A stretch of 64,000 bases of DNA from a virus: IMG/VR virus record IMGVR_UViG_3300027749_000042, one strand, 5' to 3'. Below, piece after piece: positions 30,006-36,494 of the stretch (the stretch's first letter is position 1; every line of letters starts with the position of its first letter). The position numbers and the translations under genes were made by a program. The notes beneath the pieces were generated by a model, which worked only from the letters and a program-made list of their open reading frames with translations, searched no databases and was not told the origin of the DNA.

Positions 30006-30034
30006 TTGACAATCCCGTCCCGACCATATAAAAT
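30006..30034 (+). promoter_or_regulatory. early sigma70 promoter
   Basis: TTGACA-17-TAAAAT. Confidence 0.75.
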
Positions 30035-30053: not shown

Positions 30054-30257
30054 ATGCAATTTTTAGCCAAACCTAATCTAAATAACTCCATAGGTCAAAA
30101 GGTGTTCGATACGTTGGCAGAAGCAGTCAAGTACCTAGAATACAAAACTGGGCACAAAATGGATTTTGTTGTCGATAGAAAGACGAAGGTAAAAACCTAT
30201 GACTGGGAAATCATCGGTAAGCTCAAGCGGATCGAAGCGCAACCCAATCGCGCTTGA
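30054..30257 (+). CDS. hypothetical protein
   Basis: GGAG RBS. Confidence 0.6.
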   Translation: MQFLAKPNLNNSIGQKVFDTLAEAVKYLEYKTGHKMDFVVDRKTKVKTYDWEIIGKLKRIEAQPNRA

Positions 30258-30399
30258 TTTGGCTACTACTAAATACCATGCTCGTGTCGTTGCATCTCGC
30301 AAAGGCTACAAGCGTAAAGGTCGCGTAGCTCAGCTGGATAGAGCAACGGATTTCTACTCCGTGGGCCGAGGGTTCGAATCCTTCCGCGACCGCCACTAA
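30199..30399 (+). CDS. ArfA-like basic peptide; codons 1-40 precede tRNA-Arg and the frame continues through the tRNA
   Basis: KRNPIALDLATTKYHARVVASRKGYKRKG resembles the ArfA core; GAAGGT upstream. Confidence 0.5.
   Translation: MTGKSSVSSSGSKRNPIALDLATTKYHARVVASRKGYKRKGRVAQLDRATDFYSVGRGFESFRDRH
30319..30395 (+). tRNA. tRNA-Arg(TCT)
   Basis: cloverleaf, CCA. Confidence 0.93.
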
Positions 30400-30415
30400 C
30401 AAAGAGGTTGACAAG

Positions 30416-30784
30416 GTGACAAAGATCGTTTATAATGGTTGCTTCGGTGGCTTTGGTTTGTCCGATGCCTGCATTCGTAGGTACCTCAAGATAAAGGGTG
30501 TCCCTTTTACTGAGGAAGATTCGGAATATCCTAGCTTTCGCAATGTCCGATTTCGTATCGGTACTAGCGTAATGAATGAGGGTGACTTTTTCAATGATTG
30601 GAATATTGAGCGGACAGATCCTGTTCTCGCTCAAGCCGTAGAAGAGCTTGGTAAAGCTGCGTCTGGTTATTGTGCTGACCTGTGCATCCGTGAGTTAGCA
30701 CCTGGTACGCGGTACATTCTGCGAGAGTATGACGGTTCCGAATGGATCGAAACCGAAGATGAAATGGAATGGAGTGTAGCATGA
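30416..30784 (+). CDS. conserved phage hypothetical protein
   Basis: N.CFGGFGLS, R.DP.L, EYDG.E. Confidence 0.75.
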   Translation: MTKIVYNGCFGGFGLSDACIRRYLKIKGVPFTEEDSEYPSFRNVRFRIGTSVMNEGDFFNDWNIERTDPVLAQAVEELGKAASGYCADLCIRELAPGTRYILREYDGSEWIETEDEMEWSVA

Positions 30785-31124: not shown

Positions 31125-31202
31125 CCTCCGTTGGTGTAGCGGTCCAACATACCCGCCTTTCAAGCGCGGAGATCATCGGTTCAAATCCGATACGGAGGAC
31201 CA
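31125..31202 (+). tRNA. tRNA-Glu(TTC)
   Basis: cloverleaf, CCA. Confidence 0.9.
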
Positions 31203-33074: not shown

Positions 33075-33533
33075 ATGCAAAAGATGATCGTGCTTGACAA
33101 TGTGTTTGATCCTGCTATAGTAGAGCAGTTGAAAGCGTTTGATTATGGTCCGCCAATGCCACAGCGTTGGTACGATTACGGCGTTAGCGCATTGCATGAA
33201 AAGATCCTTGAAATCGCGAAGGAACATTTTGATCTATCGCAGACAACTGGTTATGAAATGTGGGTCAATCAAAAAGCCGTTGGTTGGCATTTTGACCATG
33301 ATGAATACATATATAAGCGAACGCAGGAACTGATATTTCCTGCTGTGAGCATCGTGTACTATGCACACATTGAAAACATGCAAGGTGGCGATTTCACGTC
33401 CGAGAGTTTTCGATGCACACCTAAGACAAATAGATTGGTTATGTTCTCTTCGGACATTTACCATGCTGTGTATGATTACACAGGCACACGATTTGCAATT
33501 AGTATGAATCCGTGGAATAACAGGCCCGTATAG
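33075..33533 (+). CDS. 2OG-Fe(II) oxygenase-like protein; stop codon inside tRNA-Leu
   Basis: WHFD, GG, NRLVMF, H, R. Confidence 0.8.
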   Translation: MQKMIVLDNVFDPAIVEQLKAFDYGPPMPQRWYDYGVSALHEKILEIAKEHFDLSQTTGYEMWVNQKAVGWHFDHDEYIYKRTQELIFPAVSIVYYAHIENMQGGDFTSESFRCTPKTNRLVMFSSDIYHAVYDYTGTRFAISMNPWNNRPV

Positions 33534-33615: not shown

Positions 33616-34212
33616 ATGCAGAAATTCAATTTGTTTTCAACACCAGTAGCAATTTTTGATTTGCCGGATTTTGAAAGAATCAATAAAATTATTTTAGATG
33701 GCAATCTCAAAGGTGTTGCTGAGCAAAATGGTTCAGATACTTTTGAGTATTCACAAGACAGAAATATCTGGAGTCATAGATATAATGAAGGTATAAATAT
33801 TCTTCATGATTTCTTTTTGGAATCTGCTGCCAAATATGCAACTGAATTTTTTGAGATGGAATATAAACCAGATTTCTTTAGACATGCTAGAGGGTGGATT
33901 AATTTTTGTAAATATGGGCAAGAATATAGATTTCATAGTCATCGAATGACTACGATTGCAGCCACTTATTATGTGGATGTAGGAGATAAAGGTGGGATCA
34001 TTCGACTACTCGATCCTAGATCGACGTTAGGTTGGATTAGTCTTAATCCTGAACATTATAATGTGTTCAACTATAAGCCAAAAGCTGGACAGATGATTAT
34101 GTTTCCTGGGTGGCTAGTTCATCAAGTGTCGCACAATCAAACCGATAAAGATCGTGTGGCAGTGACAACAAATATGAATCTTATTCAGAAGCACTATGCT
34201 ACCTTAGTGTAA
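33616..34212 (+). CDS. putative 2OG-Fe(II) oxygenase (TIGR02466-like); stop codon inside tRNA-His
   Basis: W.N, HSH, YYV, DPR, FPGWL.H.V, R. Confidence 0.82.
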   Translation: MQKFNLFSTPVAIFDLPDFERINKIILDGNLKGVAEQNGSDTFEYSQDRNIWSHRYNEGINILHDFFLESAAKYATEFFEMEYKPDFFRHARGWINFCKYGQEYRFHSHRMTTIAATYYVDVGDKGGIIRLLDPRSTLGWISLNPEHYNVFNYKPKAGQMIMFPGWLVHQVSHNQTDKDRVAVTTNMNLIQKHYATLV

Positions 34213-34282: not shown

Positions 34283-34357
34283 GATCCTAGAGCATGACTG
34301 GCTATGCGGGTGTCTCTAAAACATCGAATACGGGTTCAAGTCCCGTTAGGATCACCA
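34283..34357 (+). tRNA. amber suppressor tRNA (CTA)
   Basis: gatccta/taggatc acceptor; gcat/atgc D-stem; ggtgt-ct CTA aa-acatc; acggg-ttcaagt-cccgt; ACCA. Confidence 0.88.
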
Positions 34358-35353: not shown

Positions 35354-35429
35354 GCCGTCTAAGCTAATCTAGTGAAAGCGCCTGCCTGAAGAGCTGGAGA
35401 GCTTGGAGCGTAACCAAGAGACGGCACCA
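35354..35429 (+). tRNA. tRNA-Phe(GAA), atypical D/T loops
   Basis: all four stems pair; T-loop AGCGTAA; CCA. Confidence 0.82.
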
Positions 35430-35460: not shown

Positions 35461-35850
35461 ATGCCAAGAAAACCAAAAGATTTATATAAAGAAGATATAC
35501 GCGATAAACATGTTGGTCATGGAGTTGCTCGATCACCACATTGGTCAACTGTACAGCATAATCATTTAAAACTTGAACCAGCTTGTGCTGCATGTGGCGG
35601 CGGTTTGAATCTTAATGTTCACCATAAAAAACCATTTCACCTATTCCCAGAATTAGAATTAGAACCAACAAACCTAATCACGCTATGCATGGATGGCGAT
35701 AAAGATTGCCATATCAAGTTGGGTCATGGTGGCAATTTCAAAGCATATAATCCAGACGTAGAGGAACATGTGGCTATTGTAAATGCAGACTTCACACTTC
35801 TAGAAGAATATGCGAAGAAAGCAAAAAAGAATAGGTTGCTAGTCGGATGA
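35461..35850 (+). CDS. HNH endonuclease
   Basis: CAAC, VHH, NLITLC...CH. Confidence 0.85.
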   Translation: MPRKPKDLYKEDIRDKHVGHGVARSPHWSTVQHNHLKLEPACAACGGGLNLNVHHKKPFHLFPELELEPTNLITLCMDGDKDCHIKLGHGGNFKAYNPDVEEHVAIVNADFTLLEEYAKKAKKNRLLVG

Positions 35851-36494
35851 AACGCCTCGCTCTTTTTCAACACCATCCTGAATGTTCCAGGCAATGTTGT
35901 GATGGAATTGAGCGAGCATTATCTCCGCAATATGAAGTGAAGCTGTTTACGGTTCAAGATAATCTTGATGAGGTGCTAAATGATGTGGATGGAATTGTTT
36001 TCCCTGGCGGCATTGGCGACAGTGACAGTTATCACGATTTCTTTACACGTTCTAAAGCTAACAAAGTCGCAGCGTTTCTTGATAGAGGTGGTAGGTATAT
36101 CGGCATTTGCATGGGTGCTTATTGGGCTGGTTCTAGATATTTTGACATCCTTGATAAAGTAGATGCGGTTCAATATATCAAGCGGCCGACTGCTGAGATA
36201 CGCCGAAGTTATGGCACGGTCGCTGATATTGAATGGCTTGGTCAAAAAGAAAAGATGTTCTTCTATGACGGTTGTGTCTTTACAGGCACTGGAAAATATG
36301 ATACTATTGCCAAATATGCTAACGATGAACCGATGGCAATCATTCAAGGCAATCTTGGTTTGATTGGTTGCCATCCTGAGAGCGAGGAATTTTGGTATGA
36401 GAGCCCTTATCAGTATCTTGATGGATATTGGCACGATGGTAAACATCACCAGTTGCTACTAGATTTTGTGAATAGACTTTGGAGAGTTGGCTGA
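35847..36494 (+). CDS. BPL-N / class I glutamine amidotransferase-like protein; stop codon inside tRNA-Ser
   Basis: PGG, GICMGAY, HPE. Confidence 0.85.
   Translation: MKRLALFQHHPECSRQCCDGIERALSPQYEVKLFTVQDNLDEVLNDVDGIVFPGGIGDSDSYHDFFTRSKANKVAAFLDRGGRYIGICMGAYWAGSRYFDILDKVDAVQYIKRPTAEIRRSYGTVADIEWLGQKEKMFFYDGCVFTGTGKYDTIAKYANDEPMAIIQGNLGLIGCHPESEEFWYESPYQYLDGYWHDGKHHQLLLDFVNRLWRVG

Follow-up and report, generated by a model that had tools for sequence, protein, structure and literature searches.

A small basic phage gene, probably of ArfA ancestry, runs without a stop codon into a tRNA-Arg gene

A 64-kb stretch of viral DNA from a large, presumably freshwater phage (64,000 nucleotides; IMG/VR record IMGVR_UViG_3300027749_000042), referred to here as the window, contains a genuine small basic phage gene that has no stop codon of its own and reads in frame into the adjoining gene for tRNA-Arg(TCT). 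We consider it probable that the product is an early phage protein that derives from ArfA and is directed at ribosomes, that the stop-less fusion to the tRNA is tolerated and possibly exploited, and that both forms of the product, a 40-residue form and a read-through form, are made.

The ORF occupies positions 30199-30399 of the plus strand and encodes 66 amino acids between an ATG and a TAA. The gene body comprises the first 40 codons (30199-30318), which include no stop, and codons 13-40 (30235-30318) encode the conserved family core, KRNPIALDLATTKYHARVVASRKGYKRK. Codon 41 (GGT) begins at nucleotide 1 of tRNA-Arg(TCT), which ARAGORN places at 30319-30395 on the same strand with an encoded CCA and which matches the Rfam tRNA model at 30319-30392 (68.1 bits). 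The first in-frame stop, a TAA at 30397-30399, lies beyond the tRNA, two bases 3′ of the encoded CCA, and would be reached only on unprocessed transcripts. An initial annotation of this DNA had described the same arrangement, with codon 41 on the first nucleotide of the tRNA and the sole stop past it, and our analysis bore this out.

Substitution patterns reveal that the ORF is under constraint as a protein-coding frame. Over codons 21-39, which lie clear of the upstream gene, comparison with 17 DNA relatives gave a mean dN of 0.17 and a mean dS of 1.27 in the ArfA-like frame (ratio 0.14); the other two frames over the same codons contained stops or gave ratios >5. Pairwise comparisons contained runs of third-position changes, including CGT to AGA with the arginine kept. 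The first 59 nucleotides of the ORF overlap, in a different frame, the 3′ end of a well-supported upstream gene at 30054-30257, a feature absent from the initial annotation. Two differences between the window and one relative (L007) within this overlap are silent in the ArfA-like frame; read in the frame of the upstream gene, the same changes replace Glu with Lys and Gln with a stop. The ATG is conserved and follows a purine-rich motif by 7-9 nt. This motif is a Shine-Dalgarno-like GAAGG in the window (30185-30189, plus strand, 9 nt 5′ of the ATG) and, at the equivalent position, AAGGAG in L146 and AAGGAA in L147. Homologues of the ORF were found only in metagenomes and IMG/VR contigs, and the more distant ones stand alone, each with its own start and stop. 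Because the low dN/dS ratio is confined to its own frame and the ATG and Shine-Dalgarno-like motif are conserved, we conclude that the ORF is a genuine small basic phage gene.

The upstream gene (30054-30257, plus strand) encodes 67 amino acids, belongs to no Pfam family, and has a GGAGAG Shine-Dalgarno sequence before its ATG. By tblastn, it is present in 11 of 18 related loci, all of this clade and at 51-73% identity, including L146 and L147, whose ArfA-like peptides retain the canonical motif described below; within the clade it is always paired with the ArfA-like gene. A sigma-70-like promoter (TTGACA-17-TAAAAT, 11 of 12 consensus matches) lies at 30006-30034 on the plus strand. As we found no terminator-like site between this promoter and the tRNA-Arg, the two ORFs and the tRNA should form one transcript. 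Directly 3′ of the tRNA-Arg is a second promoter-like site (TTGACA-17-TATAAT, 30408-30436, plus strand), a perfect 12 of 12 match that extends into the beginning of the following gene (30416, phrog_16527); TTGACA also occurs 3′ of the tRNA in L009, L129, L130, and L133. On one metagenome contig, the upstream gene and the ArfA-like peptide are fused in frame (P0167, 100 aa), through either a natural fusion or an assembly indel, and one may ask whether the two proteins act jointly. This fusion prompted us to consider programmed frameshifting from the upstream gene. Conservation of the ATG and of the Shine-Dalgarno-like motif, together with the separate starts of stand-alone homologues, led us to reject it as the main route.

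The in-frame junction with tRNA-Arg recurs, without a spacer, in many diverged relatives, a check that the initial annotation had proposed. Codon 40 (AAA or AAG) directly abuts nucleotide 1 of the tRNA in the window and in L001, L006, L009, L125, L127-L130, and L132-L135. At these loci, the peptides have diverged to about 57% identity and the tRNA sequences have diverged too; the tRNAs of relatives carry compensatory changes in the T stem. We surveyed the junction in the best 120 clusters, 43 of which belong to the clade and 77 of which lie outside it. The frame reads through into an intact tRNA in 32 of the 43 clade clusters, and the tails that follow codon 40 are 7-26 aa long, the stop falling within the D loop, within the anticodon loop, or 3′ of the CCA. 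Of the remaining 11 clusters in the clade, three carry the canonical motif and end in ordinary stops, which in L146 and L147 are TGA codons with no tRNA close by. All 77 listed members outside the clade are stop-terminated, 2-61 residues after the Y.R motif (median 12), and there was no tRNA within 1.5 kb of the six stand-alone loci examined. The initial annotation had stated that homologues of this kind, stop-terminated and not linked to a tRNA, would count against its proposal; among them are the closest orthologues with the canonical motif and the greater part of the family.

Some junctions in the clade are interrupted. In L007 (1055-1520) and L008 (221-690), an Endonuclease VII-family gene (53.9 bits) and a different tRNA-Arg(TCT) are inserted after nucleotide 11 of the resident tRNA-Arg, an arrangement suggestive of a mobile endonuclease cassette that has the tRNA gene as its target and carries a substitute for it. 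In L011 (220-823) and L131 (1615-2285), a 190-aa gene that belongs to no Pfam family sits exactly at codon 40, and the tRNA-Arg has been pushed about 590 nt downstream. In all of these insertion variants, which persist in nature, the ArfA-like frame acquires an ordinary stop 9-11 codons further on.

Sequence and profile comparisons make common ancestry of the window peptide with ArfA highly likely. The window copy itself is derived, falling short of the Pfam ArfA threshold and lacking the KGKGSY motif. Neither its 40-aa nor its 66-aa version matched Pfam ArfA (PF03889) at E up to 10, BLASTP yielded no alignment with E. coli ArfA, and the family profile had no match among PDB sequences. The lack of an ArfA match in NCBIfam is uninformative, as this collection has no ArfA model and E. 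coli ArfA itself is unmatched. At the motif, the window copy reads RKG---YKRK and lacks the KGKGS[YF] hallmark, which is present in 30 of 30 sampled bacterial ArfA sequences.

Homology of the window peptide to ArfA is transitive, since it runs through same-clade orthologues that retain the canonical motif and through profile comparison. Three same-clade peptides (P0164, P0169, and P0201) contain RKGKGSYSRK, have an MTGNSS...KRNP N-terminus in common, and score 36.1, 34.0, and 32.7 bits, respectively, against Pfam ArfA, for which the gathering threshold is 25.5 bits. P0169 is 67% identical to the window peptide over its whole length, with a single 3-residue gap that removes KGS, and the overlapping upstream gene is also present with P0164 (L146) and P0201 (L147), the two with readable DNA. 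A further relative, L138, scored 16.4 bits (E 0.006) against Pfam ArfA. In the tandem protein P0155 (70 aa), one repeat contains KGKGSF and the other the deleted form, KK-IY. The Pfam ArfA matches of the orthologues are limited to model positions 19-44 and leave out the RF2-contacting N-terminal part. As we read the alignments, the Ala that is invariant in the phage family is offset by one position from ArfA Ala18, which is part of the hydrophobic N-terminal segment through which E. coli ArfA activates RF2.

For the profile comparison, we aligned 110 family members that lack the KGKGSY motif, leaving out all canonical-motif sequences, with 30 diverse bacterial ArfA sequences gathered from 401 proteobacterial genomes. 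With hhalign, the two sets matched with a P of 3.6e-5 (probability 71.5%, score 26.3). Among 394 valid column shuffles, the top score was 15.3; the remaining 6 of 400 runs were excluded because hhalign gave an artefactual score of about 131 across 6 almost empty columns. A 9-sequence alignment compared with 11 enterobacterial ArfA sequences gave a weak result (P 0.019, probability 2.5%); the comparison turned informative only once both sides were diverse. On single peptides, an HMM built from the diverse ArfA set scored 6-10 bits, values that 1-7 of 2,000 composition-matched shuffles also reached. The alignment register was the same across repeated alignments and is that proposed in the initial annotation, and the conserved pattern of N(-11), hydrophobic, T-P, aromatic, and R.RVV reaches well into the mid-region of ArfA. 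The likeness that had been judged by eye therefore stands as distant homology, with orthologues that pass Pfam, one of them (P0169) 67% identical, but does not extend to a Pfam match or a KGKGSY motif in the window peptide itself. The profile check that the initial annotation had suggested was similarly divided, with no Pfam match for the window peptide and a significant hhalign match for its family.

Within phages, the window peptide falls in the family known as DUF7230 or phrog_20887. Residues 13-40 match positions 3-30 of the 46 in the phrog_20887 profile (E 4.4e-5, 24.4 bits), and relatives match both phrog_20887 (to E 4e-7) and phrog_2701. The window peptide did not match Pfam DUF7230 (PF23876), for which the gathering threshold is 27 bits, and the scores of L133 (20-25.5 bits) and L136 (20.9 bits) are below this threshold. 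A full member of DUF7230 (45.4 bits) is Acj9p003, a 43-aa protein whose gene adjoins rIIA among the early genes of the T4-like Acinetobacter phage Acj9. A profile search with 15 family members recovered 1,682 clusters at E up to 0.01, mostly of 32-65 aa, and united the window peptide, its relatives, and Acj9p003 in a single continuum; the members listed have in common the pattern K(P)RNPIAKDLRTPKYR.RVV.SKK.Y.RK. The window peptide resembles DUF7230, phrog_20887, and phrog_2701 in motif, in size, and in the loss of KGS, but differs from typical DUF7230 members, whose ordinary stop comes 2-61 residues past Y.R and which are not linked to a tRNA. When we searched GenBank phages by tblastn, the window peptide gave one weak match, to a Roseobacter phage (E 6), L137 gave none, and L138 gave only weak matches in T4-like Acinetobacter phages. 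Our literature search found no paper that names DUF7230.

The ArfA-like gene is not the only gene in the window that ends inside a tRNA. Two 2OG-Fe(II) oxygenase genes (33075-33533 and 33616-34212) and a GATase/BPL_N-like gene (35847-36494) have their stops inside the next tRNA, which is Leu-caa, His-gtg, and Ser-gct, respectively. In each of these three unrelated Pfam-domain genes, the stop codon is at nucleotides 8-15 of the following tRNA, and altogether a preceding gene overlaps 4 of the 28 tRNAs that ARAGORN reports in the window. Since three unrelated genes of the array also end in this way, gene-tRNA overlap is not specific to the ArfA-like gene. By their layout, tRNA 5′ processing would render the mRNAs of these three genes non-stop too, and the phage would evidently tolerate the removal of stop codons by RNase P. 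The array also encodes two suppressor-type tRNAs, one with anticodon TCA that reads UGA (31125-31202, called SeC by ARAGORN) and one with anticodon CTA that reads UAG (34283-34357, called Pyl). Stop read-through by these tRNAs could add to the ribosomes that reach mRNA 3′ ends. One additional tRNA, at 35354-35426 (Rfam, 41.6 bits), was not reported by ARAGORN.

A model that accommodates these data is that the ArfA-like gene descends from the ArfA family through the phage branch represented by DUF7230 and phrog_20887, which would have lost the KGS of KGKGSY to leave KG-Y. In the clade of the window, an ancestral deletion may have fused the gene to tRNA-Arg(TCT) and so deprived it of its own stop. 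Transcription would start from the promoter at 30006 and include the upstream 67-aa gene and the tRNA-Arg, and the ArfA-like gene would be translated from its own ATG inside the upstream gene. Unprocessed transcripts would give products of 47-66 aa with a tRNA-encoded tail of non-conserved length, which in the window would be the 66-aa read-through form. RNase P cuts at tRNA +1, which would place its cut between 30318 and 30319. As the ORF has no stop before the tRNA, such a cut would leave a non-stop mRNA, and cleavage to this product is plausible from the gene layout; the processed transcripts would end after codon 40. The basic C-terminal half of the protein is predicted to bind the vacant mRNA channel of ribosomes stalled at the 3′ end of an mRNA, early in infection. 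Ribosome release by this rescue-type factor, together with host rescue systems, may make the stop-less state tolerable and possibly exploited, and the fusion would then be part of an array-wide habit of genes running into the next tRNA. The data demonstrate the gene itself, its chain of homology, and how far the junction is conserved and where it breaks down. We infer ribosome binding, any recruitment of RF2, the cutting of this transcript by RNase P, and any regulation that may follow, including an ArfA-style feedback loop.

The length of the 40-aa form bears on whether it could act as ArfA does. Lys40 of the window peptide aligns with ArfA Lys42, and E. coli ArfA needs 47 residues: the protein is active when truncated at Asn47 and inactive when truncated after Met40 (PMC5378476). 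The bare 40-mer is thus between the inactive and active E. coli truncations, and it is shorter than every stop-terminated relative. At its start (GR...), the tRNA-encoded stretch is similar to the natural ends of certain short relatives, for example YKRKGRKR.

ArfA, the alternative ribosome-rescue factor A of Proteobacteria, is extended and becomes ordered only on the ribosome, where it occupies the vacant mRNA channel and brings in RF2 for the hydrolysis of peptidyl-tRNA. Both ArfA and the product of the window gene are small basic peptides, and their common core consists of N, hydrophobic residues, (T)P, an aromatic residue, R.RV, basic residues, and Y.RK. The E. coli ArfA string quoted in the initial annotation agrees with the translated arfA of NC_000913.3. 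Unlike ArfA, the window gene is phage-encoded and lacks both the KGS of KGKGSY and the hydrophobic C-terminal tail. It also has no internal hairpin of the arfA type, and its putative processing site is the 5′ end of the tRNA, the site for RNase P. The C-terminus of ArfA fills the vacant mRNA tunnel (PMC5378476). The arfA mRNA becomes non-stop through cleavage by RNase III or termination at an internal hairpin, and ArfA is tagged by tmRNA unless trans-translation is saturated (PMC8012679). As in arfA, the usable stop of the window gene would be lost once its transcript is cut. BrfA/ResQ of Bacillus subtilis also depends on RF2 and is made from a non-stop mRNA, through a terminator inside the ORF (PMC6881298). 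The parallel drawn here with the window gene would lie in this regulatory logic. As both BrfA and ArfA come from non-stop mRNAs, the logic recurs in unrelated rescue factors.

The junction itself resembles the tRNA punctuation of animal mitochondrial transcripts, reportedly described by Ojala, Montoya and Attardi in 1981, in which an ORF abuts a tRNA without a spacer and the mRNA 3′ end comes from tRNA 5′ processing. Mitochondrial mRNAs cut in this way have their stop codon completed through polyadenylation. To our knowledge, no such completion takes place in bacteria, and the processed product of the window gene would therefore be a true non-stop mRNA.

Phage homologues of ArfA have been noticed before. 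Gp30 of pelagiphage HTVC027P is annotated as ArfA, has a Pfam ArfA domain, and is expressed during infection (PMC12753301). Gp30 is phage-encoded, as is the window peptide, and is known only from annotation and transcriptomics, with no tRNA fusion described. Our literature search found no paper on a fusion of ArfA to a tRNA.

How much of ArfA biology the window gene has kept can be read in several ways. The initial annotation had suggested that the phage may rebuild the ArfA feedback logic through cutting of a tRNA by RNase P. In its full form, this circuit would substitute the tRNA for the hairpin that RNase III cuts in arfA, and the cut at tRNA +1 would be a designed route to a non-stop mRNA. 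As long as trans-translation works, the 40-aa product would be tagged by tmRNA and destroyed; it would build up as an active rescue factor only under tmRNA saturation. Homology to ArfA, the retention of the stop-less zero-spacer junction down to about 57% identity, and tails that vary over 7-26 aa, as expected of an unimportant tail, all fit this proposal, as does the fact that ArfA and BrfA, both known RF-dependent rescue factors, come from non-stop mRNAs (PMC8012679, PMC6881298); the tRNA-Arg, with its encoded CCA, is moreover a normal RNase P substrate. However, the canonical-motif orthologues of sister phages have TGA stops and no tRNA, nearly all of the 1,682-cluster family is stop-terminated, and junction-insertion variants with an ordinary stop survive in nature. 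Since three unrelated enzymes of the array lose their stops likewise, a special design is unnecessary, and since the junction has no intergenic base that could take a neutral indel, the fact that it stays constant argues only weakly for selection. In addition, the 40-mer ends at the equivalent of ArfA Lys42, between inactive and active truncations (PMC5378476). On balance, we regard a designed feedback circuit as improbable, although it deserves weight.

Rather doubtful, in our estimate, is that the gene encodes a DUF7230-type peptide in which rescue has been lost, with either ArfA ancestry or just a shared basic RNA-binding segment, and that its overlap with the tRNA reflects genome compaction only. 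Possible roles for such a peptide are to stop host translation, by blocking the mRNA channel or host rescue (tmRNA-SmpB, ArfA), or to bind other RNA. Loss of KGS has become fixed in hundreds of phage clusters, no match reaches the RF2-facing N-terminal part of the ArfA model, Pfam keeps DUF7230 as a separate family of unknown function, and the Acj9 member lies among early genes next to rIIA, all of which would suit a function other than rescue. Yet sister phages carry canonical and deleted forms interchangeably, as orthologues at one and the same locus, and the two forms occur in tandem within P0155, both of which suggest a shared function, and the conserved pattern extends far into the ArfA mid-region. 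That the ORF is instead a chance, untranslated open frame in the leader of the tRNA we consider extremely unlikely. It is short and overlaps the upstream gene by 59 nt, and with 28 tRNAs in the window, frames that run into tRNAs are easy to find, but the substitution pattern, with a dN/dS of 0.14 only in the ArfA-like frame, contradicts this explanation, as do stand-alone homologous genes in unrelated phage contexts and the PHROG and Pfam family matches. The reading that we prefer remains an ArfA-derived, ribosome-directed protein whose stop-less fusion is tolerated and may be put to use.

If the link to ArfA holds, DUF7230 / phrog_20887, a very common family, gains a testable function on stalled ribosomes, and many phages would bring their own factor for rescuing ribosomes or interfering with their rescue. 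Fusion to a tRNA would be a third independent route to a non-stop mRNA, after RNase III cleavage and intragenic termination, and a bacterial-world counterpart of mitochondrial tRNA punctuation. It also raises the general question of how phage array genes are expressed when their stop codons sit inside the next tRNA. A bolder extension, which strikes us as unlikely, is that the phage rebuilt the ArfA circuit on a tRNA: RNase P would make the non-stop mRNA, the factor would evade tmRNA tagging and build up only when rescue is exhausted, it would clear ribosomes stalled on its own mRNA and on at least three cargo mRNAs (of the two 2OG-Fe oxygenases and the GATase-like gene), and the more than 1,600 DUF7230 clusters would be unrecognised rescue factors. 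On this extension, the factor might also clear ribosomes that read past stops by means of the UGA- and UAG-reading tRNAs of the phage.

Searches with ARAGORN and Rfam found no tmRNA in the 64-kb window, and in related phage records the tmRNA matches were all below threshold and mostly of tRNA size. One record (G405, 103809-104141, locus L148) contains a 333-nt tmRNA match near a DUF7230 gene, which scores 28.4 bits against a threshold of 47. In the bacterial arfA genes at L112, L113, L118, L120, L121, and L123, the full-length frame ends in ...AA, with termini such as PYLMAA, LLLAA, SLLAA, RQAA, and SKAA that are reminiscent of the ssrA degron; such ends may destabilise the full-length bacterial ArfA product.
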